Source of the DNA: Candidatus Pacearchaeota archaeon
GTDB taxonomy: Archaea; Nanobdellota; Nanobdellia; Pacearchaeales; GW2011-AR1
Direction: 5' to 3'
Assembly: GCA_017608405.1 (NCBI GenBank)
Contig: JAFCFX010000001.1
Span: 7,667-71,666, forward strand
Length of the DNA: 64,000 bases
Shown here: in pieces, positions 13,108 to 42,031 of the stretch
How positions within the stretch are numbered: position 1 is the first letter of the stretch
Layout of the letters: each line of letters starts with the position of its first letter
Made by a program: the position numbers and the translations under genes
Notes under the pieces: generated by a model
Seen by the model: only the letters and a program-made list of their open reading frames with translations
The model's database searches: none
What the model was told of the DNA's origin: nothing

Positions 13108-13199
13108 GCCCCTGTAGCTCAGCCTGGATAGAGCGACTGCCTTCTATCTATTGAGGTGAAGAAAGCAGTAGGTCGCAGGTTCGAATCCTGTCGGGGGCA
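13108..13199 (+). tRNA. tRNA-Arg (anticodon UCU) with an intron of about 17 nt
   Basis: GCCCCTG-TA-GCTC-AGCCTGGATA-GAGC-G-ACTGC-CTTCTA, then an insert (TCTATTGAGGTGAAGAA) of about 17 nt, then GCAGT, AGGTC, GCAGG-TTCGAAT-CCTGT, CGGGGGC and discriminator A. Confidence 0.75.
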
Positions 13200-14285: not shown

Positions 14286-17174
14286 ATGAGAAAGAGGGAG
14301 AGGATTGTTACTTATTTATTTATTGTAGTTTTACTTGGTTTTGCAATTGGTTTTTTATATGTAGCAGAGGTAAGACTTACTGGATTTGCTGTTTTTGGGG
14401 ATTCTGGAGTGGAAGTTGAAAAAGGAGCTTATTGGGATAAGTATGAAGATGCACAAGGGATTCAAAGACTAAAAATTCATAACACTCCTATTAATTATTA
14501 TGATGGAAATGATTATGTTAGTATTACTTATGGTTCTTGTGGGAGCAATTGTTTCAGAGATTGGAATGGATTAATCTATAGAGTAAGTACAGATCCTCAA
14601 AAAGCGTACATAAATTTATATGATTCTGAAGATAATTATATTTCTAGTTTTGGTTTTGGCATTACTGGACAGATTGGAGCAAATACTTATAAATATACTA
14701 CTTTGAATTTTACATGGACTTGGACCCAAGAAACTGTTGGAGAGGAATATATTTTTACAGGATCGAATAATCAAGCTAATTTTAATTGGACTCAAGAATT
14801 TCATTTTTATCCAAATCAATCAATGAAGATTAAAAATACAATTACAAATAATTTGGGAGTGAGTGTTGATAATACTGAATTTTGGTTTATTCAGACTATT
14901 GGATCAAATCAAGGTGTTTGGTTTAATGGAACTAAATATGATCAAGATGTATATAGGTCAGGAAATTTTGATGCGTTAATGTCAAATATTCAGTTTGAAG
15001 ATAATTATGTTTTTGATTATAGTGATTTGCTTGTTAATGGGTTTAATATTACTTCATTTTATTTAGGGGATGGAGAGGTTGTGGGGGTTGGAGGAACAAG
15101 ATTACTAGCAATTGGAATAACAAGGGGAAGCAGTGTATTTTCAGATGGAGTTGCTGTGGTTGTTGATCCTAGTGTAAAAGTAAGTGAGGGAGGGGATGAT
15201 GCATATGTGGCTTCTGGGAGTCCAAATCAAAATTTTGGAACAAATACAGGATTAGAAGTAAGAAGACAAAGTCCAACAAGAAGATCATATCTTATGTTTA
15301 ATATTTCTGAGATCCCTGTTAATCAAGTGATAGATGATGCAGAATTATGTTTGTATCTTTATGATGACGTGATTTCTGGGGCCACTACAATTTCAATAAA
15401 TCATGTTCACAATATTTCTTGGTGCGAGGGAAATGGAGGGAGTGATGGAAGCCCTGTTTGTGAAATAACTTGGAACAATCAACCTTGCGGAACAAATTTT
15501 GATAATTCTTCTTTATGTAATTTGACTTCAGAATCAAATATTACTAATGATGGAAATCAAGATAATACTTGGCAATGTTGGAATATTACTGCTTTGGTTT
15601 CTAAATCTTACTTGGATGGTAGCAATAAAACTGCAATGGTTTTGACTACAAATGATTCAGGGAGTGCAGATAAATTTAGATCAAAAGAATATAGTGATTC
15701 TGCTTTGTGGCCTTATATTAATGTTACTTATCATACTGCAAATATTGCCCCCTCTATAAGTCTTGTAGAGCCCCAGAACCTTGTGTATGGTTATAATGAA
15801 TCTTTATCTTTGAATTTTTCTGCTTTTGATATTGATGATAATTTAGATACTTGTTGGTATACAATTAATGCAGGGAGTGGGATTATTCTTGCAAATTGCA
15901 CTAATACTACTTTTGATGTTTCTGAAGAGGGAGTTTATAATTTGACAATTTATGTAAATGATACTTTTGGGGAGCAGGCAAGTGATAGTGTTAATTTTAA
16001 TATAGATTTAACAGGAGTAAGTATTTCTGTTTCAGAGCCTCAAGGAGACAAGACTTCTAGAACAGAAATTCCTTTGCAATATTCTGTGGTTGGGAATAAT
16101 TTAACTTGTTGGTATGAGGTAAGAACTTCAATTGGGGGAAGTGTCATTGATAATTTAACCCTTGTAAATTGTTCTGAGTCAAGTTTTGATGTTTCTTCAG
16201 ATGGAGATTATGTTTTGAGTTTATATGCAAATAATAGTTTTGGAACTTTTAATTTAACAAGTTCTAGTTTTAGTGTTTCAACTTCTTCAACTCCACCAGA
16301 TAATGGTGGGGGTAGCGGGGGGGGGAGTAGTAGTGGATCTTATACTTTAGCAACAGGACTCTTTATAGGCCCAGTACAGGATTTAATTATAGAGGCTGGA
16401 AAAACAAAGAAAATAAATGTAAATGTTAAAAATGAAAAGTTGGTTTTTTTACAAGACTGTAGGGTCGTAGGTGATGGAGATTATCCTGATTGGATTTCTC
16501 AAAGTGAAATTAAGGGCTTAGCTGCAGGAGAGTCTTATGATTTTATTTCTGATTTAACTATTCCTGAAGGTTTTGATTCAGGAATATATGGTTTGGGACT
16601 AAAGGTTGTTTGTGAAGGTGAAGAAAAAAATATTAGTTTTAATGTAGAGATTCTTGAAAAGAAATTTGATTTTCATTTAATTGATGTTGAGAGGTTTAGT
16701 GAAGATAAAATGAAAATAGTTTATTCTCTAGAAGAACTTGCAGGATTAGATCAGGAAATAGGAGTGGAATTTTTATTTTTTGATTTAGATGATGAGAAGC
16801 AAGCAGAGGTTAAAGAAAATAAGACAATCACCCCCAATTCAAATCAAGAATTCGAAGCCTTTGTTTCTATTGATCCTGATTTAAAAGGCGATTTAACTAT
16901 GTTAATTAATTTAAATTCAGAAGTTTATTCTTATTTTGTTCAAGAAAATATTGTTTTGGGCCCTTCAATTAGTGGTCTTGCTGTTTTAGCAGACAATGTT
17001 AATCTTAATAATATTTTTAGTATTGTCTTTGTTCTTCTTTTCTTGGTATTTGCTTTTTTTGTGATTAGAAAAATTAGGAGAGGCAAGGTAGGAGTTAAGA
17101 AAAAAAAATCAAGAAGAAAAAAATATGATTATGTAGTGCCTAAATATGTACTAATGGTCTTGTGTGGTGCCTAA
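14286..17174 (+). CDS. Large cell-surface protein (962 aa), N-glycosylation sequon-rich, tandem Ig-like repeats, C-terminal TM anchor with basic tail; S-layer-like
   Basis: N-terminal TM; more than 30 NxS/T sequons (e.g. NSSLCNLTSESNITNDG, NKTAMVLTTNDSG); two repeats of about 90 aa (CWYTINAG...FDVSEEGVYNLTIYVNDTFG / CWYEVRTS...FDVSSDGDYVLSLYANNSFG); GGGSGGGSSSGS linker; C-terminal hydrophobic segment plus IRKIRRGKVGVKKKKSRRKK. Confidence 0.65.
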   Translation: MRKRERIVTYLFIVVLLGFAIGFLYVAEVRLTGFAVFGDSGVEVEKGAYWDKYEDAQGIQRLKIHNTPINYYDGNDYVSITYGSCGSNCFRDWNGLIYRVSTDPQKAYINLYDSEDNYISSFGFGITGQIGANTYKYTTLNFTWTWTQETVGEEYIFTGSNNQANFNWTQEFHFYPNQSMKIKNTITNNLGVSVDNTEFWFIQTIGSNQGVWFNGTKYDQDVYRSGNFDALMSNIQFEDNYVFDYSDLLVNGFNITSFYLGDGEVVGVGGTRLLAIGITRGSSVFSDGVAVVVDPSVKVSEGGDDAYVASGSPNQNFGTNTGLEVRRQSPTRRSYLMFNISEIPVNQVIDDAELCLYLYDDVISGATTISINHVHNISWCEGNGGSDGSPVCEITWNNQPCGTNFDNSSLCNLTSESNITNDGNQDNTWQCWNITALVSKSYLDGSNKTAMVLTTNDSGSADKFRSKEYSDSALWPYINVTYHTANIAPSISLVEPQNLVYGYNESLSLNFSAFDIDDNLDTCWYTINAGSGIILANCTNTTFDVSEEGVYNLTIYVNDTFGEQASDSVNFNIDLTGVSISVSEPQGDKTSRTEIPLQYSVVGNNLTCWYEVRTSIGGSVIDNLTLVNCSESSFDVSSDGDYVLSLYANNSFGTFNLTSSSFSVSTSSTPPDNGGGSGGGSSSGSYTLATGLFIGPVQDLIIEAGKTKKINVNVKNEKLVFLQDCRVVGDGDYPDWISQSEIKGLAAGESYDFISDLTIPEGFDSGIYGLGLKVVCEGEEKNISFNVEILEKKFDFHLIDVERFSEDKMKIVYSLEELAGLDQEIGVEFLFFDLDDEKQAEVKENKTITPNSNQEFEAFVSIDPDLKGDLTMLINLNSEVYSYFVQENIVLGPSISGLAVLADNVNLNNIFSIVFVLLFLVFAFFVIRKIRRGKVGVKKKKSRRKKYDYVVPKYVLMVLCGA

Positions 17175-21478: not shown

Positions 21479-21793
21479 TTAGAATAAAGAAGAAGATATT
21501 AGGGCTATTATGTTTAGAATTATTAATGAGTTTAGAATTTTAAGTGTTTTTACTCTTTTTTTTATGCTTTCATTTATGTTGTATTTGTTTGAAAAAGTTG
21601 TTTTAAATATGGGATTTGCAGCAAATAATGTTAGATTGGTTATTTTATGAGTGAACTTGGTAGGGTTTAATTCATGGTATAAGCTTGGAGATTTATTTTT
21701 GATATCGCTCATTATGCTATTCAAATATAGGTATCTAATTATTGCTAGAACCATTAAGGTAACTGCTAGTATTATTGTAAGGTAGAGATTCAT
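21479..21793 (-). CDS. Hypothetical membrane protein
   Basis: 104 aa, hydrophobic N- and C-terminal segments; 4-nt overlap with endA. Confidence 0.35.
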   Translation of the reverse strand: MNLYLTIILAVTLMVLAIIRYLYLNSIMSDIKNKSPSLYHELNPTKFTHKITNLTLFAANPIFKTTFSNKYNINESIKKRVKTLKILNSLIILNIIALISSSLF

Positions 21794-22329
21794 GGCCTAA
21801 CCCAACCTACCTCATAATAACTAACATCTCCTTCTTCATCAAGAATTGCTAGTAAAAGTTTCTTTTTTGTGGAATGTGCAACACGATTTTTTGCACTGAA
21901 TTCGTGCCAGGTCAATCTTTTTGATTCGTGATCTGCAAATACAATCCATTTTGCATGTATTTTTCCTGGTTTTTTTCCTTTGTCATAGACTCTGAAATCT
22001 GCTCCAAATTTTAAGGCTGTTTTTACAATATATCCTTTTTCTCTTAAATTTTTAAACACAGGATATTTTAATTGGATTCTTTTATCTATTCTTTTGAATT
22101 TGTTTAATAGTTCTTTTTTTTCAATTTTTTTGTTTCTCGAGTAGATTTCTATTTTGTTTTTTTCAACTAAGAATAAAGCTTCTGATAAGGTATATTGAAT
22201 TTTTTCCCCAATACGTTCCCCAAAGCAAGATTTTTTGCACAAATTATGAGCTTCACTAGTATTGCTGGATACAATCTGTCCAATAATGTGTGCTTGTATT
22301 TTTTCCATGTTTTGAATACGAGAGGACAA
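21790..22329 (-). CDS. endA: tRNA-splicing endonuclease (EndA), short homotetramer-type
   Basis: 179 aa. The C-terminal catalytic domain KTALKFGADFRVYDKGKKPGKIHAKWIVF carries the conserved G.DFRVY ... H.K motif. This is consistent with the four intron-bearing tRNAs in this window. Confidence 0.8.
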   Translation of the reverse strand: MSSRIQNMEKIQAHIIGQIVSSNTSEAHNLCKKSCFGERIGEKIQYTLSEALFLVEKNKIEIYSRNKKIEKKELLNKFKRIDKRIQLKYPVFKNLREKGYIVKTALKFGADFRVYDKGKKPGKIHAKWIVFADHESKRLTWHEFSAKNRVAHSTKKKLLLAILDEEGDVSYYEVGWVRP

Positions 22330-22360
22330 TATTTAAAAGTTCCTAAGTGATTGTTTTTAT

Positions 22361-24808
22361 ATGAAACATAATTTTAAAAGCATAGAGAAAAAATACCAAA
22401 AGAAGTGGGAATCTAAAAAAATATTTGTAGCTAGACAAGGTAAAGCTAAAGGTAAGAAGTTTTATGTTCTTGAAATGTATCCCTACCCCTCAGGAAGTGG
22501 GCTTCATATGGGACATGCTTTTAATTACATTGTTAGTGATGTTCTTGCAAGAATGAAAAGAATGCAGGGATTTAATGTACTCTATCCTGTTGGTTATGAT
22601 TCTTTAGGATTGCCTGCTGAAAATGCTGCAATAAAGAAAGGAATTCATCCTAAAAAACATACTGAAAAAGCGATTATTAATTTTATGAAACAACAAAAAG
22701 AATTGGGTTTGAGTTATGATTGGACTCGGCTTTTAGCAACTCATGATTCTGGTTATTATAAATGGGATCAATGGATTTTTCTTAAGATGTTTGAAAAAGG
22801 TTTAGCTTATAGAAAAAAATCAAGTGTTAATTATTGTAAAAAATGTAAAACTGTTTTAGCAAATGAACAAGTTCATAATGGAAAGTGTTGGAGACATCCA
22901 GATACTAGTGTTGAAATAAAACAATTAGAACAATGGTTTTTCAAGACTACAAAATATGCTGATGAGCTTTATCAAGGAATTGATAAACTAAGGAATTGGC
23001 CTGAGAGAATAAAATCTATGCAAAAAAACTGGATTGGTAAAAGCCATGGAACTGAAATTAATTTTAAGATAAATAATGAAGATTGGAAAATTTTTACAAC
23101 ACGTCCAGATACTGTTTTTGGTGTGACTTTTATGGTTGTTAGTGCACAACATCCAAAGCTTTTTGATTTAGTTACTGAGAAGCAAAAAAAACAAGTTGAG
23201 AAATTTTTAAAGAAAATAAAGTCAACATCTCAAGAAGATGCTGATAAACTAGATAAAGAAGGGGTATTTACAGGAGCATATGCTACTAATCCCCTAACTA
23301 AAGAAAAAATTCCTGTTTGGGTCGGAAATTTTGTTGTTGCTGATTATGGTAGTGGTATGGTTATGGCTGTTCCAGGTCATGACCAGAGAGATTATGAATT
23401 TGCTAAAAAATATAAATTAAAAATTAAACAAGTTGTTGAAAGTAAAGTTAAAGATTTTGCTTATGAGGGTGATGGAAAGCTGGTCAATTCTCCTGGTTTT
23501 AATGGATTAGATAATATTAAGGCAAAAGAAAAAATAACTAAATTTTTATTAAAGAAAAAGCTTGGAAAAAAAGCAGTTAAGTTTAAACTTAGAGATTGGT
23601 TAGTGAGTAGACAGAGATATTGGGGGACTCCAATTCCCATTGTTTATTGTGATAAATGCGGGATTGTGGCTGTGGATGAAAAAGATTTGCCTGTAAAACT
23701 TCCTGAAAAAGTTAAGTTTGGAAAAGGAAATCCTTTGGAAACTGCAAAATCTTGGGTAAATACAAAATGTCCAAAATGTAATTCAAAAGCTAGGCGTGAA
23801 ACAGACACAATGGATACTTTTGTTAATTCTTCATGGTATTTTTTAAGATATCTTGATGTTAAAAATAAGTCAAAGATTTTTGATGTGAAAAAAGCAAAAT
23901 ACTGGATGCCTATTGACCAATATATTGGGGGCGCAGAACACGCTTGTATGCATTTAATTTATTTTAGATTTTATACAAAATTTTTAAGGGATTTGGGTTT
24001 ACTAAAAATAGATGAACCAACTTATAATTTATTTAATCAAGGAATGCTCCATGGAAAAGATGGTTATGTTATGAGTAAGTCAAGGGGAAATGTTGTATTG
24101 CCAGAAAAAATATCAAAAAAATATGGTATTGATACTGCCAGGTTGTTTTTAATGAGTATAGCGACCCCAGATAAAGATATTGCCTGGAGCGACAAGGGAA
24201 TTGAAGGAAGTTTTAGATTTATTAATAAAGTAATGGATTATTTTCAAGAAGTTAAAATAGTAAAAAATCCCGATGCTAGGACAGAGAGCAAGTTGAATAA
24301 AACAATTATTGAAGTTACAGATTATATTTCTGAGTTTAAATATAATTTAGCTATAATTAAAATCAGGGAATTATTTAATTCACTTCCAAAGTCAATTAGC
24401 AAGGATGTTTTAGAAAACAGTTTAAAATTACTTAGTGTTTTTTGTCCACATATTACTGAAGAACTTTGGGGAAAAATTAGATCTAAAGGTTTTATTTCTT
24501 TGAGTAATTGGCCTAAGTTTGATAAAAAGAAAATAAATCTTAAATTTGAAAAACAAGATCAAGCAGTTGAAAAGATAGTTTCAGATATTATGAATATTTT
24601 AAAGATAATTAAAGCTAGAAAAGAAAAAAGAGATAAGGTTTTTGTTTATGTGATCCCAAATGAAAAAGAGCTTTATGATGAATCTGAGATAAGTAATAGA
24701 GTTAAAAAATTAGTTAGGATATTTGCAGTTAATGATAAGAATAAATATGATCCAACAAATAAATCTAAGAATACAAAGCCCTATCGTCCTAGCATTTATT
24801 TGGAGTAG
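22361..24808 (+). CDS. leuS: Leucyl-tRNA synthetase (archaeal/eukaryotic type)
   Basis: YPYPSGSGLHMGHAFNY (HIGH region) and KMSKSRGNVV (KMSKS); 815 aa. Confidence 0.85.
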   Translation: MKHNFKSIEKKYQKKWESKKIFVARQGKAKGKKFYVLEMYPYPSGSGLHMGHAFNYIVSDVLARMKRMQGFNVLYPVGYDSLGLPAENAAIKKGIHPKKHTEKAIINFMKQQKELGLSYDWTRLLATHDSGYYKWDQWIFLKMFEKGLAYRKKSSVNYCKKCKTVLANEQVHNGKCWRHPDTSVEIKQLEQWFFKTTKYADELYQGIDKLRNWPERIKSMQKNWIGKSHGTEINFKINNEDWKIFTTRPDTVFGVTFMVVSAQHPKLFDLVTEKQKKQVEKFLKKIKSTSQEDADKLDKEGVFTGAYATNPLTKEKIPVWVGNFVVADYGSGMVMAVPGHDQRDYEFAKKYKLKIKQVVESKVKDFAYEGDGKLVNSPGFNGLDNIKAKEKITKFLLKKKLGKKAVKFKLRDWLVSRQRYWGTPIPIVYCDKCGIVAVDEKDLPVKLPEKVKFGKGNPLETAKSWVNTKCPKCNSKARRETDTMDTFVNSSWYFLRYLDVKNKSKIFDVKKAKYWMPIDQYIGGAEHACMHLIYFRFYTKFLRDLGLLKIDEPTYNLFNQGMLHGKDGYVMSKSRGNVVLPEKISKKYGIDTARLFLMSIATPDKDIAWSDKGIEGSFRFINKVMDYFQEVKIVKNPDARTESKLNKTIIEVTDYISEFKYNLAIIKIRELFNSLPKSISKDVLENSLKLLSVFCPHITEELWGKIRSKGFISLSNWPKFDKKKINLKFEKQDQAVEKIVSDIMNILKIIKARKEKRDKVFVYVIPNEKELYDESEISNRVKKLVRIFAVNDKNKYDPTNKSKNTKPYRPSIYLE

Positions 24809-24873
24809 GATTAATTGTGTATTCACTTGAAAAAAGTAGTAAGGCTTATATATTTTGGAGGTTTTGGATTAAC

Positions 24874-26445
24874 ATGGTTAAGAAGAATTTATTTTTATTT
24901 TTGGCAGTGTTTTTTTTAATAGCAAATTTGCAATTTGCCTTTGCAATTGAAGGTAAGAGGGCGATTTTGAAAGAAGATAGATTGACTATTGATGAAATAA
25001 ATCAATTAATTAAGGAAAAAGGGGCTAGTTGGATTGCTAGGGAAAACCCTGTTTATAATCTTCCTGATGAAGAAAGAAAGAAAATGTATGGTTTAGAAAT
25101 TACTGCAGAAGATTTTATGAAAATCTTTGGAGATGAAGAAAGATTAATTGAAAGTAGTGGAGATCTTCCTGAATATTTTGATTGGACAGACTATCATGGA
25201 CAAAATTATATGACTCTTGTAAGAAATCAAGCTGCTTGCGGGGGGTGTTGGGCTTTTAGCACAATTGCAGCTTTAGAAGGAAATGCAAATGTTTTCTATA
25301 ATGATCCTAGTTTAGATTTAGATATGTCTGAACAAGATTTAATTTCTTGTTATATGGGGGACGGTTGTGATGGAGCTAATGAGGAAGAGATTGAATATGG
25401 ATTTAGTAATTATCTTAGAAATACAGGGGTTGCAACAGAATCTTGTTTTAGATTTACTGCTACTAACGATTTTTGCTCAAACAAGTGTGTTGATTGGCAA
25501 GATGATGCTTGGAAAATTTTAGGATATCGAGATGTAACCTTGAGTATGGATGCTATAAAACAAGCAATTATGGATTATGGTCCTGTTGCAGTTGGAATGA
25601 TTGTTTATGAGGATTTTCCTGCATATTCTGAAGGAATATATTCACATACAACAGAAGAAATTGAAGGATATCATTCTGTTGCTCTTGTTGGTTTTGGTGA
25701 GGAAAATGGAGTAAAATATTGGATTGCTAAAAATAGTTGGGCATATTGGTGGGGAGAGAGTGGATATTTTAGAATAAAAATGGGAGATTCAGAAATTGAT
25801 TCTTGGTTTGCTTTTGCAGTAACTCAACCAGATCCTCCTGAACCCCAAACTGTTCTTTGTACAGATGCAGATGCAGATGGTTATTGTTATTGGGGGATAG
25901 GAGATAAGCCTGGGACAGGTTGTCCTGCTTGTAATGATACTGTATTTGATTGTGATGATTCTGATCCTATGATGTTTGAAGGTTGTGGATTTTATCCTGC
26001 AGGACCAGGACTCTTAAATATAAGTTCAGATCCAACAAGTGCTAGGATTTATATTAAGAATTTATTGACTGGAGAATGGAATTATGTGAGCCAAACACCT
26101 TTTTTGTATTTATTAGATTCTGGTGAAAGAGAAATAAACCTTACTAAGTGGGGATATTATGATTATCTCACTACTATTTTAATTGAAGAAGATCTTACAA
26201 CTGATTTATTTGTTGTTTTAGAAAGAGAACCTTGTGGAGATGTTAATAATGATACTAAAATTAATATTTTAGATATTGTTTATTTGATTAATTATATTTA
26301 TAAGGAAGGGCCCGATCCAATTTGTTCTCCTATTGAAATGTGCGCAGATATAAATAATTATGGGGGGATAGATATCTTGGATGTTGTTTATTTGATAAAT
26401 TATGTTTATAAGGGGGGAGGTCCTCCTTGCGGTATCCCTGAATAA
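24874..26445 (+). CDS. Secreted papain-family (C1) cysteine peptidase with C-terminal dockerin-like module
   Basis: Start is supported by GGAGGT upstream of ATG 24874 and a signal peptide (MVKKNLFLFLAVFFLIANLQFAFA). Catalytic QAACGGCWAFS (QxxCGSCWAF), HSVALVGF and NSW are present. The C-terminus has two dockerin-type Ca-binding segments: GDVNNDTKINILDIVYLINYIYK and ADINNYGGIDILDVVYLINYVYK. Confidence 0.8.
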   Translation: MVKKNLFLFLAVFFLIANLQFAFAIEGKRAILKEDRLTIDEINQLIKEKGASWIARENPVYNLPDEERKKMYGLEITAEDFMKIFGDEERLIESSGDLPEYFDWTDYHGQNYMTLVRNQAACGGCWAFSTIAALEGNANVFYNDPSLDLDMSEQDLISCYMGDGCDGANEEEIEYGFSNYLRNTGVATESCFRFTATNDFCSNKCVDWQDDAWKILGYRDVTLSMDAIKQAIMDYGPVAVGMIVYEDFPAYSEGIYSHTTEEIEGYHSVALVGFGEENGVKYWIAKNSWAYWWGESGYFRIKMGDSEIDSWFAFAVTQPDPPEPQTVLCTDADADGYCYWGIGDKPGTGCPACNDTVFDCDDSDPMMFEGCGFYPAGPGLLNISSDPTSARIYIKNLLTGEWNYVSQTPFLYLLDSGEREINLTKWGYYDYLTTILIEEDLTTDLFVVLEREPCGDVNNDTKINILDIVYLINYIYKEGPDPICSPIEMCADINNYGGIDILDVVYLINYVYKGGGPPCGIPE

Positions 26446-26474
26446 TTGGATACTTTTTTATAATTGTTTTAGTT

Positions 26475-27494
26475 TTGTTATCTATGGAAAAGTGGGTGAT
26501 AGTTTCAGCAGTGAGTATTCTTTTGTTCCTTGTTGTGGGGGGCATTTGGATGTTTCAACCTTTTTGGAAACTTTTTACTTGTGGAGATGGAACACTTTAT
26601 GGAACCTGCTCTTCAAGACAACCTTATTTTTGCGGTCAGGGGTTTCTTGTAGAAAATGCCTCTTTTTGTGGATGTCCTGAAATCTTAACTTTAGAAGAAA
26701 ATTCTTGTATTTCTGATTATCAAACAAAACCAAGGAAAACTCTTTTGAAATATATTTTAAGAGGCAAAGAAAATTATATTGATTTTACTGCTTATGGGGG
26801 CCTAGTTGATTATTTATTAGATCTTTCTCCAAATGTTGTTTTTGATGAGCAAGGAGAAGTTTCTTTTAGAGATTTGAAAATTAGAAATATTAATCTCGTG
26901 GAACAAGAATATTTGATTTTACCTTTAGTCACACAAATACAAAATCTTGTTCATGATAAAACAGATCAGATGAGGATTGCTATTAGTTTGGTTCAACATA
27001 TTCCCTATAATGAGTCTGAGAAGATTGTTAGGGTAAGGAATCAAAATTTTAATTATTCTAGATATGCTTATGAGGTTCTTTATGAATCACAAGCTGCTTG
27101 TGGAGGCAAGTCAGAGCTTTTGGCTTTTTTATTAAAAGAAATTGGTTATGGTGTTGTTTTGTTTTATTATCCTGTTGAAGATCATATTGCTGTTGGAGTG
27201 AAATGTCCTCTGGAATATAGTTTAGATAATAGTGGATATTGTTTTATTGAAACTACAGGACCAGCAATAATTACAAATAATCAAAATTACTATATTGGTT
27301 GGGGTAAGCTTAGTCCTAATCCTGAAATAATTTCAATTTCTGAAGGATATTCTTTAGATGATGATTTATATGAATATGATGATGCTGACAAAAGAATTAA
27401 GATTTCTGCAGTCATTGAAGAAAAAGGAGAGATTAATTGGTTTCAGAGTAAAGAATTGAGTAAATTAAAACAAAAATATGGTTTAGAGTTTTAG
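26475..27494 (+). CDS. Membrane-anchored transglutaminase-like (Cys-His-Asp papain-fold) protein
   Basis: N-terminal TM then Cys-rich CGDGTLYGTCSS. Core YESQAACGGKSELLAFLLKEIGYGVVLFYYPVEDHIAVGV matches the transglutaminase-like C...H arrangement. Confidence 0.55.
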   Translation: MLSMEKWVIVSAVSILLFLVVGGIWMFQPFWKLFTCGDGTLYGTCSSRQPYFCGQGFLVENASFCGCPEILTLEENSCISDYQTKPRKTLLKYILRGKENYIDFTAYGGLVDYLLDLSPNVVFDEQGEVSFRDLKIRNINLVEQEYLILPLVTQIQNLVHDKTDQMRIAISLVQHIPYNESEKIVRVRNQNFNYSRYAYEVLYESQAACGGKSELLAFLLKEIGYGVVLFYYPVEDHIAVGVKCPLEYSLDNSGYCFIETTGPAIITNNQNYYIGWGKLSPNPEIISISEGYSLDDDLYEYDDADKRIKISAVIEEKGEINWFQSKELSKLKQKYGLEF

Positions 27495-27495
27495 A

Positions 27496-29181
27496 TTATT
27501 CTAAAACAGCTTTTATTCTTCGAACACCTGCACTAGAAGAAGTTTGTTTTTGTATTTTAAATCTCTTTAGTTCGCTTGTGTTTCTAACGTGTGGGCCTGC
27601 ACAAATCTCTTTTGAAAAATTTCCAATACAATAAACAGAGATTTTATTTCCATATTTTTCGTCAAAAGAACCAAGAGCTCCTTTTTTCTTTGCTTCTTCA
27701 GGAGACATTATTTTCCTTGTAATTTCACAGCATTTTTCAATTTGTTTGTTGACTGTGTCTTCTACTTTTTTTATTTCTTGTTGTGTTAGTTTTCTTGGAA
27801 AAGAAAAATCTAATCTTAATCTCTCTGCAGTTATGTTGCTCCCTCTCTGCACAATGTTTTCATCTTTTAGCACTTTTCTTAATGCTGTTAATAATAAGTG
27901 AGCTGCAGTATGGAGTTTAGTAGTTGCTTGGGAATCGTCTGCCAATCCCGATTTGAATTTGCCTGCCGTAGCTGTTCTCGACAATTTTTGATGTTTTTGC
28001 AATTCTTTTTCGTAATATTTTTCATTTATTTTAATTTTATTTTCTTTAGCAAGTTCTTTTGTCATTTCTAGTGGAAAACCGTAACTTTGGTATAATAAGA
28101 AAGTTTGTTTTCCCGAAAGGATTTTTTTATTTGAAGTGAATTTTTTAAATTTGTTTAAACCTTTTTCAATTGTTCTACTGAATTTTTCTTCTTCTTTTTT
28201 AAGTTCTTCTAAAATGTTTTTTTTATTTTTTAGTTCAGGATAATCATCATAAATATGGAAAATAGGTTCAGCTATTTTTGTGAGTGATTCTTTTATGTTT
28301 AATTTTCTTTTATATCTTACAGCTCTCCTAATCAACCTCCTTAATACATATCCTTGTTCTAGATTACTGGGGGTGATTTTGTTTGCAATCATAAATACAG
28401 AGGCTTTGACATGGTCTGCTATTATTCTCATTTCTTTTTTATGTTGTGTATATTTCTTTTTTGATAAATTTTCTATTTCATTAATTATTGGTTTAAATAT
28501 GTCTGTTAGGTAATTATCTTTTAGATTGTTTAAAATTGCGATTGTTCTTTCAACCCCCATCCCAGTGTCTATGTTTTTTTGTTTTGCTTGCTTATAGTTT
28601 CCTTTTGAGTCTTTGTTATATTCCATAAAAACATTATTCCATATTTCAAATCCATTCACAAACATTTCTGTGTCAGGCCCACAAGGTCCTGTTTTTCCTG
28701 CAGGCCCCCACCAATTATCTTTCTTTCCTAAAAATTTTATTTTTTTTATTGCATGATCTCCCCATATTTGTGCAGATTCTGTATCTTTTTTAGCATTTTT
28801 ATCTCCCTTAAAACATGTTACTAATATTTGGCTTTTTTTGATTTTCAATATTTTGGTTAAGAATTCAACACTATATTCAATAGCTTCTTGCTTCCAATAA
28901 TCTCCTAAACTCCAATTACCTAGCATTTCAAAAAAAGTGTGGTGGTGGGGGTCTCCGACTTCTCCTATGTCTCGTGTTCTTATGCATTTTTGCACATTTA
29001 CAAGACGTTTGCCCTGGGCATGAGATTGTCCTAATAAATAAGGAACTATTGGGTGCATTCCTGCTGTTGTGAATAAGACTGTTGGATCATTTTCAGGAAT
29101 AAGTGGAGCATTCGGAATCTCTTTATGATTTTTAGATTTAAAAAATTCAATATATTCCTTGATTAATTGTTTCCGATTCAT
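27496..29181 (-). CDS. alaS: Alanyl-tRNA synthetase, compact (561 aa), bacterial-like N-terminus, editing-domain motifs present, no C-Ala domain
   Basis: FKSKNHKEIPNAPLIPENDPTVLFTTAGMHP...QKCIRT...HHHTFFEMLGNWSLGDYWK has class II AlaRS motifs. The editing region shows HTAAHLL and CAGPHV. Confidence 0.75.
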   Translation of the reverse strand: MNRKQLIKEYIEFFKSKNHKEIPNAPLIPENDPTVLFTTAGMHPIVPYLLGQSHAQGKRLVNVQKCIRTRDIGEVGDPHHHTFFEMLGNWSLGDYWKQEAIEYSVEFLTKILKIKKSQILVTCFKGDKNAKKDTESAQIWGDHAIKKIKFLGKKDNWWGPAGKTGPCGPDTEMFVNGFEIWNNVFMEYNKDSKGNYKQAKQKNIDTGMGVERTIAILNNLKDNYLTDIFKPIINEIENLSKKKYTQHKKEMRIIADHVKASVFMIANKITPSNLEQGYVLRRLIRRAVRYKRKLNIKESLTKIAEPIFHIYDDYPELKNKKNILEELKKEEEKFSRTIEKGLNKFKKFTSNKKILSGKQTFLLYQSYGFPLEMTKELAKENKIKINEKYYEKELQKHQKLSRTATAGKFKSGLADDSQATTKLHTAAHLLLTALRKVLKDENIVQRGSNITAERLRLDFSFPRKLTQQEIKKVEDTVNKQIEKCCEITRKIMSPEEAKKKGALGSFDEKYGNKISVYCIGNFSKEICAGPHVRNTSELKRFKIQKQTSSSAGVRRIKAVLE

Positions 29182-29221
29182 TGTAGTTTAAAGAAGAAGA
29201 GATATTTTAAAAATTGTGTGG

Positions 29222-29579
29222 TTAATGTAATTTTCTTAGTTTGTTTTGAATATTTTGAAGTTCGAGTTCTATGCTTTCATCGTAAGGCTCATCTCTTTTT
29301 TTTGGTTTTGGTTTTTTTTCAACTTCTTCGTCATCTTTTAGGATCTCTGGAATTTGCATTTTTGGGAGTATTTTTTGTAGTTTACTCATGTTTGTTTTTG
29401 TTTCTGCTAACTTTCTATGGAGTTTAATCTTAGTTTGTAGTTCTTCACCCCTAAAGGAATGATATCTCTTTAAGATCTTTATCATTTTCAATAAATCCAT
29501 TTCTGATTTAAGAACATCTCTTTTTGATTGGATTGCTTCGCTTCTTTCGAGTTTAATATGGATTAGGTTTTTTGCCATT
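29222..29579 (-). CDS. Coiled-coil protein (119 aa from MAKNL), translationally coupled to the upstream gene
   Basis: ATG at 29579 follows the stop of the upstream ORF by 1 nt (TAAAATG). Predicted alpha-helical coiled coil; no family assignment. Confidence 0.45.
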
Positions 29580-30152
29580 TTATTCAACCTTAGAAAAAAT
29601 GTCTTGGTCCACTTTCTCAATTTGTGCCTTGATTGCTTGGATTTCTGCTTCCCATGCTGATAATTCTTTTTCCTCTTCTTCTTTCAACTTCTTTATGTCA
29701 TGCAACATTTTTTCGATTTCGTGGACTTTCTTTTTTGTTTTTTCAAAAACATGCAACCCCTCTTCGAATTTATCTATTCTGATGAAGATTGGTTCATTTT
29801 TTCTCACAATTTTAGCAACTTCTTCAAATTCTTTTGGAATTCTTCCTCCTGAAAGTTCTTTTGTTCTAGGAATTTTAAGAGGTTTTTGCATCCTTTGCAA
29901 CTCATCTTCTGCAAACTCATCTGCATCAAAAACCTCTTCACCTTCTTTTTTCCCAGTTATAGCTTCTTTTATAGTATTTTGTGAGAATTTTTCTCCAAGA
30001 GAAGTATTTGGAAAGCTGGGTAGTTGAGGAATTGACGGCTGCGAATTATTTTCTCCTATTTTTGGCAATTCTGGCAATCTTGGTAATTCTGGCAAGGATT
30101 GGCCTGGCCCCTTTTTCTCTTCTTTTTTTTCGTTTTTACTAAACCACCCCAT
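29580..30152 (-). CDS. Coiled-coil protein with N-terminal LPxLP repeats (190 aa)
   Basis: LPELPRLPELPKI repeats, then a long heptad-like region (EKELSAWEAEIQAIKAQIEK); no family recognised. Confidence 0.45.
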   Translation of the reverse strand: MGWFSKNEKKEEKKGPGQSLPELPRLPELPKIGENNSQPSIPQLPSFPNTSLGEKFSQNTIKEAITGKKEGEEVFDADEFAEDELQRMQKPLKIPRTKELSGGRIPKEFEEVAKIVRKNEPIFIRIDKFEEGLHVFEKTKKKVHEIEKMLHDIKKLKEEEEKELSAWEAEIQAIKAQIEKVDQDIFSKVE

Positions 30153-30286
30153 TTGATATATCCTTTTTTATATAGTCTTTATAATATATATAAAATAGAA
30201 TACAGGTTTAAAAACTTTTATTTTTTTAAAAATTGTTAAAATTACTAACCGAAAGTTATTTAATTGAATTTTTTTTAATATTTAGA

Positions 30287-31192
30287 ATGCTAAATAAGTT
30301 TCTAAAGGATGTTATAATTATTGTTGTTGGTAAACAAGTAGAAGACATTGCTGATCTGCTTAATGCAAAGAAACATGTAAATGAGTTTATAATTGCAAAG
30401 AAATTGGACCTAACAATAAATCAAACCAGAAATATTCTTTATAAAATTTCAGATCATGGGTTAGTTTCCTCAATTAGGAAAAAAGATAAGCGAAAAGGAT
30501 GGTATACTTACTTTTGGAAAATTGAAATTTTGAAGGCTTTAGAATTTTTAAAAGAAATTTTGATTAAGAAGAAATTACAGATCTTAAACCAAATTAAAAG
30601 CCGAGAAACAAAGCAATTTTATGTTTGTGAAAGATGCAATATTGAGTTTAATGAAGAAAATGCATTACTTCATAACTTTACTTGTGATGAGTGTGGGGGA
30701 ATTTTCTCTTTAAAAGATAATTCTAAAGTTTTAAAAGAATTTAAGAGACATTTAGAGAAAATTAATAGAGAATTATCTTTAGTTAACTCAGAAATTGAAA
30801 AAGAATTATTAAAAATAGAAAAACAAAGACAAAAGCAACTGGCAAAACAGAAAAGAGAAAAAGCAAAGAAAACCAAGGCCAGCATTGCTAAGAGGAGGAA
30901 AACTGCCGCACTAAAGGCAAAGGCGAAGGGCAAGGGGGTTAAGAAGAAAGTTAAGAAACCCATAAAAAAGACTAAGAAAAAGAAATTTGTTAAAAAGAAA
31001 TCAAGGGTTGTGAAGAAAAAAAAGCTAGTAAAAAAGATTAAGAAAAAGAAAATTGTAAAGAAGAAGTTAAAGAAGAAACTTAAAAAGAAACCAGGAAAAA
31101 AGAAAAAAATTATGAAGGAGAAGTTTGCTAAAAAGAAGCTAAAGGTTGTGAAGAAACCATTTAAGAAAATTAAAAAAGCTAGAAAAAAGTAA
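30287..31192 (+). CDS. tfe: Transcription factor E (TFE/TFIIE-alpha) with a Lys-rich C-terminal tail of about 120 aa
   Basis: Winged helix (ADLLNAKKHVNEFIIAKKLDLTINQTRNILYKISDHGLVSSIRKKDKRKGWYTYFWKI) plus zinc ribbon (CERCNIEF...FTCDECGG). The last 120 aa or so are about 60% K/R (KKKVKKPIKKTKKKKFVKKKSRVVKKKK...). Confidence 0.75.
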   Translation: MLNKFLKDVIIIVVGKQVEDIADLLNAKKHVNEFIIAKKLDLTINQTRNILYKISDHGLVSSIRKKDKRKGWYTYFWKIEILKALEFLKEILIKKKLQILNQIKSRETKQFYVCERCNIEFNEENALLHNFTCDECGGIFSLKDNSKVLKEFKRHLEKINRELSLVNSEIEKELLKIEKQRQKQLAKQKREKAKKTKASIAKRRKTAALKAKAKGKGVKKKVKKPIKKTKKKKFVKKKSRVVKKKKLVKKIKKKKIVKKKLKKKLKKKPGKKKKIMKEKFAKKKLKVVKKPFKKIKKARKK

Positions 31193-31199
31193 TTCTAAA

Positions 31200-31889
31200 A
31201 TGCCAGGCATTTATCAAATTTACCATAAAAAGAAAAAAAATTTATGGGAAAAATTTACTATTAATACAAATATAATAATATTAAATATTGTGTGTTATTT
31301 TATTTTTTATGTTTTGCTTTTATCTGGGGTTCTTTCTATTGATTCTATAGCAATTAAGCCAGCAAATATTCTTCAAGGAAAATATATTTGGACTTTTTTA
31401 ACAAGTATGTTTATGCATGGGGGAATTTGGCATTTATTTGTAAATATGTTGTCTTTGTTTTTTGTTGGGTCTTTATTGCAAAAGATTTTAGGAGCAAAAA
31501 GATATTTGAAATTTTATTTACTTTCTGGCTTATTTGCAGGTTTGCTCTTTGTTTTGATGAGTCTGGTTTGGATGTCTGATTTTAATGCTTATGCTGTCGG
31601 TGCTTCTGGGGCTTTATTTGGATTAATTGGACTCTTGGTTTTGCTGACCCCCAATCTTCCTGTATATTTGATGTTTATTCCGATTCCAATAAAGATGAAG
31701 TATGCGGGCCCAGGAATGTTGATTGTATTATGGTTAATTTCTCAAGCACCTCTTCTTTTCGGGGGAGAGCAAATTTCTATTGGGCATACTGCTCATTTAG
31801 GGGGTTTTGTTGCTGGACTTGCCTATGGAATCTATTTGAGAAACAAATATAAAAACAAGACTCGTATGATAAGCAAGCATTTTAGGTAA
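31200..31889 (+). CDS. Rhomboid-family intramembrane serine protease
   Basis: Multi-TM; catalytic GASGALFGLIG (GxSG) and downstream HTAHLGG histidine. Confidence 0.75.
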   Translation: MPGIYQIYHKKKKNLWEKFTINTNIIILNIVCYFIFYVLLLSGVLSIDSIAIKPANILQGKYIWTFLTSMFMHGGIWHLFVNMLSLFFVGSLLQKILGAKRYLKFYLLSGLFAGLLFVLMSLVWMSDFNAYAVGASGALFGLIGLLVLLTPNLPVYLMFIPIPIKMKYAGPGMLIVLWLISQAPLLFGGEQISIGHTAHLGGFVAGLAYGIYLRNKYKNKTRMISKHFR

Positions 31890-31893
31890 AAAG

Positions 31894-32493
31894 ATGGTGA
31901 AAAAGAAAGAAAAGCCTTTTAGTTTGAAAAAGCAATATAGAAAAAGTTGGGATTATATTAAGGAATCGAAGAATTTTATTTACATAATTGTGGGGTTTTT
32001 TTTAATCTTTGCTTTAATTGGTTTTTTTGTTCCTGCACCAGAAGCCCTTTCTGAGCAAATTATGAAGTTGATTCAACAACTTTTAGAACAAACAAAAGGA
32101 ATGTCTAATGGAGAATTAATAAAATTTATTTTCTTTAATAATTTGAAAAGTAGTTTTTTTGGATTTTTATTTGGCCTTGTCCTTGGAATTTTTCCTGTAA
32201 TCGGAGCTATTACTAATGGATATTTATTGGGTTTTGTTGCTACCATGGCTACTCAAACAGAAAGCATTTGGGTTTTAGCTAGAATTTTACCTCATGGGAT
32301 TTTTGAATTGCCTGCTGTTTTTATTTCTTTTGGATTGGGACTGAGGTTTGGCATGTTTATTTTTAAGAAAAATAAAATAAAAACATTAAAAGAAACTTTT
32401 TGGAACTCTTTAAGGGTTTTTTTGTTGGTAGTTCTTCCGCTTCTAATTATCGCAGCCATCATAGAAGCAACCCTTATTTCTATTTCAGGATAA
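31894..32493 (+). CDS. Integral membrane protein (SpoIIM/DUF95-like)
   Basis: 199 aa, 5-6 predicted TM segments; weak resemblance to stage II sporulation protein M family topology. Confidence 0.4.
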   Translation: MVKKKEKPFSLKKQYRKSWDYIKESKNFIYIIVGFFLIFALIGFFVPAPEALSEQIMKLIQQLLEQTKGMSNGELIKFIFFNNLKSSFFGFLFGLVLGIFPVIGAITNGYLLGFVATMATQTESIWVLARILPHGIFELPAVFISFGLGLRFGMFIFKKNKIKTLKETFWNSLRVFLLVVLPLLIIAAIIEATLISISG

Positions 32494-32709
32494 TTAATCT
32501 CTTAAATCACTAATTCCAAGCATTAGTAAAAGAAAACCAATCATAACTACAAACCAGAAAATTCCTCCCTTGAGAAATATCCACGCAGCACTTAAAAAAT
32601 TAAGACTTTTTCCGAATAATGTCCAAGAATATATTGATGAACACCAAGCAATCAAAATTATCCCCACTAAGAGAACAAGCCCCAATAAGATTTCTACCCA
32701 TTTATTCAT
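32494..32709 (-). CDS. Small hypothetical membrane protein
   Basis: 71 aa, two hydrophobic helices. Confidence 0.3.
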   Translation of the reverse strand: MNKWVEILLGLVLLVGIILIAWCSSIYSWTLFGKSLNFLSAAWIFLKGGIFWFVVMIGFLLLMLGISDLRD

Positions 32710-32888
32710 TGTATTATTTTTTGTTGTTCTTCATTTAAAAAGATTTTTGTGATTAAATATATGTTACAAAACTCTTAAAAACCCGGTTATAATCAATAAG
32801 ATATGGAAACTGAGATGATTTGTAAGTCATTAGCAATTCCAATTTTGTAATTCTAGCTAGAACTTTAATTAAAATACCTTATTATTTT

Positions 32889-33839
32889 ATGGCACAAGTT
32901 AAAGATTTTTTATGGAAACCTGGATTGTCTGTGGAAGAATTAGTTGAAAATATGGGAAATATTGGTTTTCAGAGTGTTGAGTTGAAAAAAGCAGCAGATG
33001 TTATTGTTAAGATGAAGAAAAATAATTCAGATATTTTTTTAACTTTTACTTCAAACATGGTTAGTTCTGGTTTAAGAGGCTTTTTTGCTCAGGTTATTAG
33101 GTTGGGTCTTTGCAATGTGATTGTTACAACTGCAGGAGCTATTGAAGAAGATATTATGAAAGCAACAGGCGAGAAATTTTTAATTGGAAAATTTGATAGT
33201 GATGATGTTGAATTGCATGAACGAGGAGTTAATAGGATTGGAAATTTGCTTTTAAAAAATGAAAGTTATATGAATTTTGAGACTTGGATTTATTCTGCTC
33301 TTGATAAATTTTATGCAAAAAAGAAAAAATGGAGTGTGTCTAGCCTTTTAAGGGAAATTGGGCTGATGATTGATGATAAAGATTCAATTTTATATCAGGC
33401 AGCTAAAAATAATATTCCTATTTTTTGTCCTGCAATAACAGATGGAGCAATTGGATTTCATCTTTATTTATTTCAACAAAAACATAAAGATTTTGAAATA
33501 GATGTTGTCAATGATTTTGGGAATATTTTACTTTCAACTAGTTTTGATGCAAAGAAAGCGGTTATTGCTCTTGGGGGGGGCATTTCAAAACACCACGCTA
33601 TTTTATGCACTTTGTTAAATGGAGGAGCTGAATATGCAGTCTATATGACCACCGCACATAAAACTTCAGGAAGTATGTCTGGAGCCACGACTAGCGAAGC
33701 AAAGTCTTGGGGGAAGATTAAGGATGATAGTGATGTAGCAACTGTGATAGGAGATGTTACTGTTATGTTTCCCTTGGTGATGATTAAAGCCCTAGAAGAA
33801 TTAAATAGAGAAGGCTTTTTGAAAAATGCAACCTCCTAA
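32889..33839 (+). CDS. dys: Deoxyhypusine synthase
   Basis: FTSNMVSSGLRG...VIVTTAGAIEEDI...GVNRIGNLL match conserved DHS blocks; 316 aa. Confidence 0.8.
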   Translation: MAQVKDFLWKPGLSVEELVENMGNIGFQSVELKKAADVIVKMKKNNSDIFLTFTSNMVSSGLRGFFAQVIRLGLCNVIVTTAGAIEEDIMKATGEKFLIGKFDSDDVELHERGVNRIGNLLLKNESYMNFETWIYSALDKFYAKKKKWSVSSLLREIGLMIDDKDSILYQAAKNNIPIFCPAITDGAIGFHLYLFQQKHKDFEIDVVNDFGNILLSTSFDAKKAVIALGGGISKHHAILCTLLNGGAEYAVYMTTAHKTSGSMSGATTSEAKSWGKIKDDSDVATVIGDVTVMFPLVMIKALEELNREGFLKNATS

Positions 33840-34920: not shown

Positions 34921-36003
34921 ATGGATATTAAAGTTAATCCTGAAAAAGACTTGGGGAAAAAAAAGAAAAATGCAGATGAAACAACTTTTATTGATGTCTT
35001 GAAGATTTTTTCACCAGGAACTGTTATGAGGACAGCATTTGATGATATTTTGCGTGCAAGAATGGGTGCCTTGGTTGTAGTGGATAAAGAAGGATTTTCT
35101 TCTATTTGTGAGGGAGGATTTAAAGTTAATTGTAAATTTAGTTCTCAAAGATTGGTAGAGCTTGCTAAAATGGATGGGGCAATTATTCTTTCTTCTGATA
35201 GAAAGAAAATACTTTCTGCTAATACCCTTTTAGTACCAAATATTAATTTACATACGAGTGAAACAGGCACAAGACACAGGGCAGCTGAAAGAACTTCTAA
35301 GCAATTTAAAACAATAGTGGTGGCTGTTTCTGAAAGAAGAAACAAGATTACTTTGTATTGGGGAGATGAAAAACATGTTTTGGAAAAAAGCTCTGAAATT
35401 TTAAGAAGAGCTACAGAGACACTACAAATATTAGAAAAACAAAAAGATATTTTTGAAGATGCTTTATTGCATTTGAATATTTTAGAAATAACTAATCTTG
35501 CAACTACAAGTGATGTTTGTAATGTTTTGCAAAGAATGGAGATTATTAGAAGAATTTCAGAAAGTGTAAAAAGATATTTAGTGGAGTTAGGAAAAGAAGG
35601 GATTATTGTTAGTATGAGATTAAAAGAATTAACAAGGAATTTGAGTTCAGAAAGAGAAATGATATTAATAGATTATTTTAAATCGCGTGCACCCAAAATT
35701 AAGACGCTTCTCAATAATATGAATTTTGATTTTTTATTGGAAACTTCTAATATTGTGAGGCTAATTTTTGAAAAACTCCATGACGAGTCTGTTTCTGGTA
35801 AAGGCGAAAGGATTTTAAGTAAGATAAATCTTCTTGAAAAAGAGAGAAGACTTTTAATGACTCATTTTAAAACCTTGGATAAGGTTTTTGATGCAGATAA
35901 AGAATCTCTCTTGGAAATTGTTCAGAGACAAGCAATTGTGGACTCATTAAAAGAAAAATTAGAAAATTTAAGAGAAAAAATTTTGAATGGGAAACGAATT
36001 TAA
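34921..36003 (+). CDS. Diadenylate cyclase (DAC domain, DisA-like) c-di-AMP synthase
   Basis: N-terminal DAC motifs: DGAIILS, TGTRHRAAERTS, VSERRNKITLY; 360 aa with a helical C-terminal region. Confidence 0.75.
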   Translation: MDIKVNPEKDLGKKKKNADETTFIDVLKIFSPGTVMRTAFDDILRARMGALVVVDKEGFSSICEGGFKVNCKFSSQRLVELAKMDGAIILSSDRKKILSANTLLVPNINLHTSETGTRHRAAERTSKQFKTIVVAVSERRNKITLYWGDEKHVLEKSSEILRRATETLQILEKQKDIFEDALLHLNILEITNLATTSDVCNVLQRMEIIRRISESVKRYLVELGKEGIIVSMRLKELTRNLSSEREMILIDYFKSRAPKIKTLLNNMNFDFLLETSNIVRLIFEKLHDESVSGKGERILSKINLLEKERRLLMTHFKTLDKVFDADKESLLEIVQRQAIVDSLKEKLENLREKILNGKRI

Positions 36004-38935: not shown

Positions 38936-39268
38936 ATGACAGAAATGATTAGGCTTGAGGAGGTTATGGGGGTTAAGAAAGCTTTGGAAGATGGGCAATT
39001 CGTTATTTCTGATAGATATGTTTATGATAAATATATTATGGAAAAGCTTCCTCAATTAAAACAAAATAATTATCCAAAATCTCTGTATGATAATAAAGCT
39101 CCTGGTGAAAATAAATTAGATCATATATTGCCTTGTGCTTATTTATGGGGAAATACTTTTTCTGGAGTTTGTTGGTTAGAGTTTCTACATGATGATAATT
39201 GGTTTGTTCAGAGTTCTCATTTGAAGATAAAAAAATTCTTAAAAATGGAATCTTGTGAAGAATTTTAA
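38936..39268 (+). CDS. Hypothetical protein
   Basis: 110-aa ORF, no motif recognised. Confidence 0.3.
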   Translation: MTEMIRLEEVMGVKKALEDGQFVISDRYVYDKYIMEKLPQLKQNNYPKSLYDNKAPGENKLDHILPCAYLWGNTFSGVCWLEFLHDDNWFVQSSHLKIKKFLKMESCEEF

Positions 39269-40254: not shown

Positions 40255-40262
40255 TTTTTAAA

Positions 40263-41960: not shown

Positions 41961-42031
41961 ATTTATACAGGGAAAAGGTTTTTTATAAACTTTACCAAAA
42001 AAGTAATAAACTCTTTTGTTTTGTTAGCTTA

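Follow-up and report, generated by a model that had tools for sequence, protein, structure and literature searches.

Among archaea, Archaeoglobus and the ANME group are known to have non-cellulosomal dockerins and cohesins, as are many bacteria, and scaffoldins are often missing; dockerin-bearing archaea in particular frequently do without them, and binding of archaeal dockerin-cohesin pairs has been shown in work cited by the same source (PMC9012536). For the ultra-small Omnitrophota, an adhesin role has been proposed for the dockerins that a giant protein carries (PMC10066038). Here we describe a dockerin in a stretch of 64,000 nucleotides (nt) of contig JAFCFX010000001.1 from a Candidatus Pacearchaeota archaeon (64 kb, hereafter the window), where two genes follow each other on the + strand with a spacing of 38 nt: gene A, for a predicted secreted papain-family cysteine protease with a C-terminal dockerin, and gene B, for a predicted membrane-anchored, outward-facing transglutaminase-like protein. 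A first-pass annotation of this DNA had called dockerin-cohesin systems rare in archaea, which the examples above show to be overstated; a dockerin in an archaeon is uncommon, not new. We find it probable that A and B are two independent extracellular-enzyme genes, neighbours by accident of insertion: none of 86 related loci carries a C1 peptidase, PEGA or dockerin gene beside gene B.

With 32% guanine plus cytosine (GC), the window is AT-rich; it is archaeal, and its open reading frames (ORFs) include, by Pfam, TFIIB, TBP, TFE, MCM, a tRNA-splicing endonuclease and numerous aminoacyl-tRNA synthetases. Its closest relatives are genomes labelled Pacearchaeota, Nanoarchaeota and Woesearchaeota, all of them DPANN archaea, and its sequence is identical to a stretch of a 152-kb metagenome contig (JGI 3300033153, Ga0366824_1000030), the identical contig having been recovered from two samples. 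The searches for partners and further domains reported below covered the 64-kb window; residue numbers for gene B refer to its form of 339 amino acids (aa), which starts at a TTG at 26475.

Domain architecture of gene A

The gene caller placed the start of gene A at an upstream GTG (24817, giving 542 aa), but the ATG at 24874 is the better start because of the canonical Sec signal peptide and of the GGAGG and TTATATAT upstream (Table 1). Alignments to procathepsins L and K (phmmer) reach into their prosegments from residue 25 or 26 of gene A, and no Pfam propeptide family (I29 or C1 propeptide) matched. The catalytic domain matches Peptidase_C1 (PF00112) with an expect value (E) of 4.4e-53 and 181 bits (cut-off 20.7) over residues 98-306, covering profile positions 1-207 of 220. 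Gln119, Cys125, His267 and Asn287 are intact, each opposite a catalytic residue in alignments to dipeptidyl peptidase I, the best solved relative (E 1.4e-37), and to cathepsins H, K and L, which come next. As far as its sequence goes, gene A is a member of peptidase family C1 (papain), subfamily C1A, and the profile match and the four aligned residues bear out the first-pass call of a C1 papain-like protease with its catalytic motifs; that it is secreted is predicted from the signal peptide.

With the C1A peptidases (cathepsins L, K and H, dipeptidyl peptidase I) gene A shares a full-length Peptidase_C1 domain with the Gln/Cys/His/Asn set, a Cys-Gly-Gly-Cys-Trp active-site motif, a putative N-terminal prosegment and a predicted signal peptide. 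It has no exclusion domain, although dipeptidyl peptidase I is its best solved relative, and it differs from the group in its short putative propeptide without a Pfam family, in its DPANN host and in the linker, PEGA domain and dockerin that make up its C-terminal part. Among the matches recovered from a collection of 5.8 billion sequences, only gene A combines C1, PEGA and dockerin; this combination is what is new here, the kinds themselves being well known. NCBIfam gave no match for gene A or gene B. The Cys/Asp-rich linker has no Pfam match and low AlphaFold2 confidence, and the beta-sandwich behind it passes the cut-off of PEGA (PF08308: E 1.2e-7, 32 bits against 20.8, aa 380-452). The linker and PEGA part of the AlphaFold2 model is unreliable because the alignment held no homologues there.

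The dockerin and its possible partners

Gene A ends in two calcium-binding repeats, DVNNDTKINILD-IVYLINYIYK and DINNYGGIDILD-VVYLINYVYK, each a segment of ~22 residues with a 12-residue loop followed by a helix, and the duplication can be seen in the DNA as a 73-nt direct repeat (26233-26305 and 26341-26413, 75% identical, 108 nt apart). Dockerin_1 (PF00404) matches aa 455-511 with E 5.3e-9 and 36.6 bits against a cut-off of 22.9, spanning profile positions 2-56 of 57. In an AlphaFold2 model of aa 311-523 the last ~70 residues have a mean predicted local distance difference test score (pLDDT) of 85-96 per 10-residue block, and the 20 best Foldseek matches of the C-terminal model in the PDB are all dockerins (probability 0.97-1.00, and 1.00 for the best 18), with target TM-scores of 0.8-0.87 for the free-standing modules among the first 16 and root-mean-square deviations of 1.2-2.5 Å. 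Judged by the Pfam cut-off and by a modelled fold like that of solved type I dockerins, the C-terminus of gene A is a genuine dockerin, and the profile search and the structure prediction agree with the two calcium-binding dockerin repeats that the first-pass annotation had placed there.

Like type I dockerins and the non-cellulosomal dockerins of Archaeoglobus fulgidus, ANME, Zixibacteria and Omnitrophota, this one consists of two duplicated calcium-binding loop-helix segments, and, as with other non-cellulosomal dockerins, the enzyme it belongs to is a peptidase rather than a glycoside hydrolase. It departs from known dockerins in the four cysteines that flank it, in its second loop (see below) and in recognition positions 10-11, which are the hydrophobic pair Ile-Leu in both repeats; type I dockerins of Clostridium thermocellum have Ser-Thr at these positions. 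By sequence it is closest to bacterial dockerins (Zixibacteria, up to 68% identity) and not to archaeal ones.

A further difference from known dockerins is that neither a cohesin nor a scaffoldin was found near gene A. When all window ORFs of 150 aa or more, proteins of 2144, 962 and 610 aa among them, were searched with Pfam, none showed a cohesin; phmmer detected none with five cohesin-bearing bacterial proteins of one contig (L089) against the six-frame translation of the window, and PDB sequence searches with the 2144-, 962- and 610-aa proteins detected none either, negatives that cover the 64 kb and that divergent cohesins could escape. The 962-aa and 2144-aa surface proteins, which had been named at first pass as possible cohesin carriers, are thereby included. 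No second dockerin was found in the window, and none in ~0.9 Mb of syntenic DNA of related genomes; with a single dockerin and no cohesin detected, the window shows no cellulosome-like system. We considered gene B as the partner and rejected it, as none of the 50 Foldseek matches listed for its model is of cohesin type. On the bacterial contig L089 (4744-13557), two C1 peptidases are fused to cohesin domains, beside further cohesin proteins and a cohesin-plus-dockerin protein, and papain-family enzymes therefore do join cohesin-dockerin assemblies elsewhere.

In the mechanism that we propose, the product of gene A would be exported via the Sec pathway and its short propeptide removed to give the active enzyme, whose catalytic domain would degrade extracellular proteins to peptides and amino acids for an archaeon with reduced biosynthesis. 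The Cys/Asp-rich linker and the PEGA domain would act as a spacer, and the calcium-binding dockerin with its two nearly symmetric repeats would tether the protease to a cohesin-type or other surface partner. Gene A is, on this proposal, a probable surface-tethered scavenging protease, predicted to be of horizontal origin.

It is possible, if somewhat doubtful, that the dockerin works without a cohesin, by binding the S-layer, a glycan or another surface component or as a calcium-dependent stabilising or adhesive tag, and that it could in this way target another cell. The Ile-Leu pair in place of the Ser-Thr of Clostridium thermocellum would fit such a role, as would the lack of a detected cohesin and the many genomes that carry dockerins but no cohesins. 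Non-cellulosomal dockerins are, moreover, widespread, dockerin-bearing archaea often lack scaffoldins (PMC9012536) and the Omnitrophota dockerins have been proposed as adhesins (PMC10066038). Yet both the fold and the calcium loops are those of a canonical dockerin, archaeal dockerins have been shown to bind cohesins (in work cited in PMC9012536), and the cohesin search was confined to ~64 kb of the genome. Tethering through the dockerin to a cohesin-type or other surface partner is kept here as a predicted function.

The transglutaminase-like family of gene B

Gene B itself has no match in Pfam, NCBIfam or the PDB sequences, and a PDB sequence search with gene B alone or with its family profile returned nothing meaningful. 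Among 44 family members, Transglut_core is weakly matched in 36 (best E 2e-4) and DUF553 in 18 (best E 1.8e-5), and two relatives reach the gathering score (P0250 for DUF553, 22.1 against 20.5; P0234 for Transglut_core, 23.2 against 23). The putative catalytic triad of Cys209, His237 (28 residues on) and Glu259 (a further 22 residues on) is invariant across the 44 sequences, as are all nine cysteines of gene B in the family. The AlphaFold2 model (mean pLDDT 87, predicted TM-score (pTM) 0.85) consists of a helix at aa 4-26, small six-Cys hairpins, a helical stalk and an alpha+beta core, and its Foldseek matches are transglutaminase-like only: LapG, PNGase, 3isr, Rad4/XPC, TglA, PeiP, CPR-C4, TgpA and TG2, at probabilities of 0.6-1.0 and with E-values of just ~1e-3 to 5e-2. 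Because the N-termini of the homologues are rich in Lys and Arg, the N-terminus of gene B is predicted to lie inside and the catalytic C-terminal part outside. The invariant triad and the fold matches make the first-pass description, a Cys-His transglutaminase-like protein with a transmembrane anchor, correct at the level of the superfamily.

The family is large: more than 444 proteins in a 90%-identity collection and 2956 cluster representatives at E <= 1e-3 in a profile search. Relatives occur in 268 species-representative genomes, of which the best 80 are all DPANN, mostly labelled Pacearchaeota, Woesearchaeota and Nanoarchaeota. Literature searches on this transglutaminase-like family in DPANN, or on C1 proteases in Pacearchaeota, returned nothing specific. 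As in the transglutaminase-like superfamily (clan Peptidase_CA; PF01841, PF04473; LapG, PNGase, PeiW/PeiP), the Cys opens a helix, the strand that follows carries the His and an acidic residue comes after it, and like LapG and TgpA gene B is predicted to be extracytoplasmic. Unlike the superfamily, it has no significant Pfam or PDB sequence match; its family is built from an anchor, 1-4 six-Cys modules, a helical stalk and the core; and it sits in DPANN at a fixed site between two tRNA synthetase genes.

From the model and its matches, the product of gene B most likely serves at the cell surface as a cysteine peptidase or isopeptidase in the processing of surface proteins. Tethered to the membrane and facing outward, it would act on these proteins as a cysteine hydrolase or, less likely, as a transamidase. 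That it is instead a true transglutaminase, cross-linking proteins to build or stabilise the envelope, we consider unlikely: the Cys-His-acid triad and the fold are indeed as in animal and bacterial transglutaminases, and a conserved core gene whose product faces outward would suit such a task, but its best matches by structure are to hydrolases (the LapG protease, PNGase, the putative protease 3isr and the isopeptidase PeiP). Makarova, Aravind and Koonin are, moreover, said to have predicted in 1999 that the majority of prokaryotic members of the transglutaminase-like superfamily are proteases.

The six invariant cysteines between the anchor and the stalk of gene B follow the pattern C-x-D-G-T...C-S...P-x-[YF]-C...C-x-C-P...C in a unit of ~48 aa, which occurs in 2-4 tandem copies in longer family members. 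It also forms arrays in giant proteins, with ~15 copies in P0346 (1809 aa) and 37 matched stretches in P0223 (7312 aa); P0346 has a C-terminal membrane anchor and is presumably a surface protein. In Pfam searches of four proteins with 2-15 copies, no family covered the repeats apart from one sub-threshold cEGF match, and the window gave no six-cysteine module beyond that of gene B. Going by these sequences (P0223, P0346, P0250, P0234 and P0231), the module is a mobile unit.

Table 1 Features of genes A and B in the window (residue numbers of gene B refer to the 339-aa form).
Feature	Position	Strand	Residues and details	Basis
Gene A promoter-like element TTATATAT	24846-24853	+	21-28 nt 5' of ATG	By eye
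Gene A putative ribosome-binding site GGAGG	24857-24861	+	12 nt 5' of ATG	By eye
Gene A, predicted secreted papain-family cysteine protease precursor	24874..26445	+	523 aa	ORF, Pfam
Gene A predicted signal peptide MVKKNLFLFLAVFFLIANLQFAFA	24874..24945	+	aa 1-24, A-F-A cleavage motif	By eye
Gene A putative short propeptide	24946..25164	+	aa 25-97	phmmer alignments to procathepsins
Gene A Peptidase_C1 catalytic domain	25165..25803	+	aa 98-310	Pfam PF00112
Gene A catalytic residues	25228, 25246, 25672, 25732	+	Gln119, Cys125, His267, Asn287	Alignment
Gene A Cys/Asp-rich linker	25804..26010	+	aa 311-379, six Cys, motifs CTDADADGY and DCDDSDP	Sequence
Gene A PEGA beta-sandwich domain	26011..26229	+	aa 380-452	Pfam PF08308
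Gene A dockerin	26230..26442	+	aa 453-523, two calcium-binding loop-helix repeats	Pfam PF00404, DNA repeat, AlphaFold2, Foldseek
Gene B T-run, then TATA-like box TTTTTTATAA	26454..26463	+	21-30 nt 5' of ATG	By eye
Gene B, predicted membrane-anchored, outward-facing transglutaminase-like protein	26484..27494	+	336 aa from ATG, 339 aa from TTG at 26475
Gene B predicted N-terminal transmembrane anchor	26484..26552	+	aa 4-26	Hydrophobic stretch, one helix in AlphaFold2 model
Gene B six-cysteine module	26580..26708	+	Cys36, 45, 53, 65, 67, 78	Invariant columns
Gene B transglutaminase-like (papain-fold) core	27024..27344	+	aa 184-290	Foldseek, weak Pfam in family
Gene B putative triad	27099, 27183, 27249	+	Cys209, His237, Glu259	Invariant in family

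Synteny, origin and meaning of the locus

We compared the locus with 86 related DPANN loci, 80 of them from species-representative genomes and the set including four long metagenome contigs, and counted gene content by tblastn over all 87 loci (L002-L087 and the window). In the conserved block (window 21790-33839), the genes for a tRNA-splicing endonuclease and leucyl-tRNA synthetase precede gene B, and a convergent alanyl-tRNA synthetase gene follows it, with those for TFE, rhomboid, SpoIIM and deoxyhypusine synthase beyond. Of the 87 loci, 82 have the leucyl-tRNA synthetase gene upstream of gene B and 71 the alanyl-tRNA synthetase gene convergently downstream; gene B is a vertically inherited core syntenic gene of Pacearchaeota-like DPANN. 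A match to C1, PEGA or dockerin was found in one locus, that of the present contig. Gene B directly follows the leucyl-tRNA synthetase gene, at a median distance of 115 nt, and other, unrelated inserts occupy this junction in 18 of 82 loci (a ~190-aa ORF resembling a serine hydrolase, small membrane proteins, a 301-aa protein), the protease insert of 1670 nt being the largest. Since protease and gene B do not co-occur in the 86 other loci and gene B is kept without the protease, their adjacency is read as insertion at a permissive junction and not as shared function.

At the same junction, the leucyl-tRNA synthetase of one relative (L005, 1443-4562) is 1039 aa long and matches the Ser_hydrolase family, and a free-standing ~190-aa ORF with a GHSxG motif stands right after the synthetase gene in five others (L016 4725-5297, L026 5325-5894, L030 5435-6001, L032 5414-5986 and L084 5375-5938), which suggests recurrent fusion or splitting between hydrolase and synthetase.

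These counts bear directly on the proposal, made at first pass, that A and B form one extracellular processing or cross-linking module; in such a module the two would be co-transcribed and the protease might, for example, activate or trim substrates that the product of gene B cross-links. The genes share a strand, are just 38 nt apart and both have predicted extracellular cysteine enzymes as products, but the co-occurrence in related genomes that the first-pass annotation proposed to check comes to zero in 86 loci, and gene B holds its position without a protease in 80 species-representative genomes. Each gene, furthermore, has its own TATA-like box 21-28 nt 5' of its ATG (by eye), the one upstream of gene B suggesting that it keeps its own promoter, and the model of gene B lacks a cohesin-like fold. 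Synteny has largely refuted the module, which we now hold to be very improbable.

As to where gene A came from, its best C1 relatives share 37-38% identity with it over 58% of the query sequence, and the one examined has a bacterial neighbourhood (genes for PheT with an FDX-ACB domain, Fur and ZnuA). Used as a query, the C-terminal 144 aa gave matches that with few exceptions are to the dockerin alone, at up to 68% identity, and the named sources are all bacterial, overwhelmingly candidate division Zixibacteria. The composition of gene A is host-like: its GC content (0.334) and codon-usage divergence (0.19) are both within the range of the flanking genes, and its third-position GC of 0.174 compares with 0.166-0.235 in the other genes measured. 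No direct or inverted repeats that could be scars of a mobile element flank it, the matches found being short and at chance level. Gene A, specific to its lineage, was probably acquired horizontally from bacteria in an old or since ameliorated event, which is the best reading because it accommodates the bacterial affinities, the host-like composition and the uniqueness among matches. Gene A would have come into the variable junction that separates gene B from the leucyl-tRNA synthetase gene and have since taken on the base composition of the host and an archaeal-type promoter. That it is bacterial DNA misassembled or mis-binned into an archaeal contig, as its bacterial relatives and its uniqueness among related archaeal loci might be taken to mean, is next to negligible given its composition within the flanking archaeal range, its precise fit, with an archaeal-type TATA element, into the intergenic gap between two syntenic archaeal genes, and the identical contig in two samples.

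Several points weigh against parts of this account, which we nevertheless regard as probable overall. Position 5 of the second dockerin loop is Tyr, where known dockerins usually have Asp or Asn, and cohesin-mediated tethering is proposed for a protease with no partner found in the window. The third triad residue of gene B is Glu in place of the canonical Asp of the superfamily, and protease and transamidase activity cannot be told apart from its sequence. The proposed horizontal origin, finally, draws on best-match affinities at modest identity.

Elsewhere in the window, a 610-aa ORF and an overlapping 2144-aa ORF (1471-9734) have no Pfam or PDB sequence match and showed neither a cohesin nor a dockerin nor a six-cysteine module; the two probably form a giant DPANN surface protein pair. 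The 962-aa protein (14286-17174) matches CBM96 (E 7e-19), with a disaggregatase-related repeat below cut-off, and may be a glycan-binding surface protein. A trypsin-like serine protease (39265-40125; Trypsin_2, E 3e-34) is a further protease candidate. A dense tRNA-dependent amidation cluster (40197-51266) contains a GatD-like asparaginase, two GatB/GatE-type proteins, a second asparaginase, two class II Asp/Asn-type tRNA synthetases, a GatA-type amidase and, in between, a 344-aa ORF without a family match. A gene for a DisA-type diadenylate cyclase is directly followed by one for a DHH/DHHA1 phosphoesterase (34921-37044), and the two look like a pair for synthesis and degradation of cyclic di-AMP. 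A tRNA-Arg(TCT) gene, for which 13108-13199 and 9778-9861 are given, is 92 nt long, beyond a standard tRNA, and may contain an intron, in keeping with the splicing endonuclease encoded at 21790-22329.

Two further-reaching possibilities, that the dockerin docks the protease onto cohesin scaffolds of another organism or that gene B governs the giant six-cysteine adhesins, are improbable in our estimate, even taken together. If the first were true, a Zixibacteria-type dockerin would dock onto the cohesin scaffolds of the archaeon's host or of a neighbouring bacterium, an inter-species 'cellulosome piracy'; if the second, gene B would encode a surface protease of the LapG type for the release or maturation of six-cysteine adhesins, and so a controller of the attachment of DPANN to their hosts. 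Both proteins are tractable candidates for expression studies; unless a partner or substrate comes to light, neither alters the current picture. DPANN archaea rely on other cells and on scavenged nutrients, and the few enzymes that they secrete and proteins that they carry on their surface offer the best clues to their feeding and attachment. At this locus a small, symbiont-type, Pacearchaeota-like archaeon has probably gained a ready-made, bacterial-type, dockerin-tagged protease, an ordinary gain of one gene, and the analysis of its neighbour brings out an uncharacterised but widely conserved family of membrane-anchored transglutaminase-like proteins.

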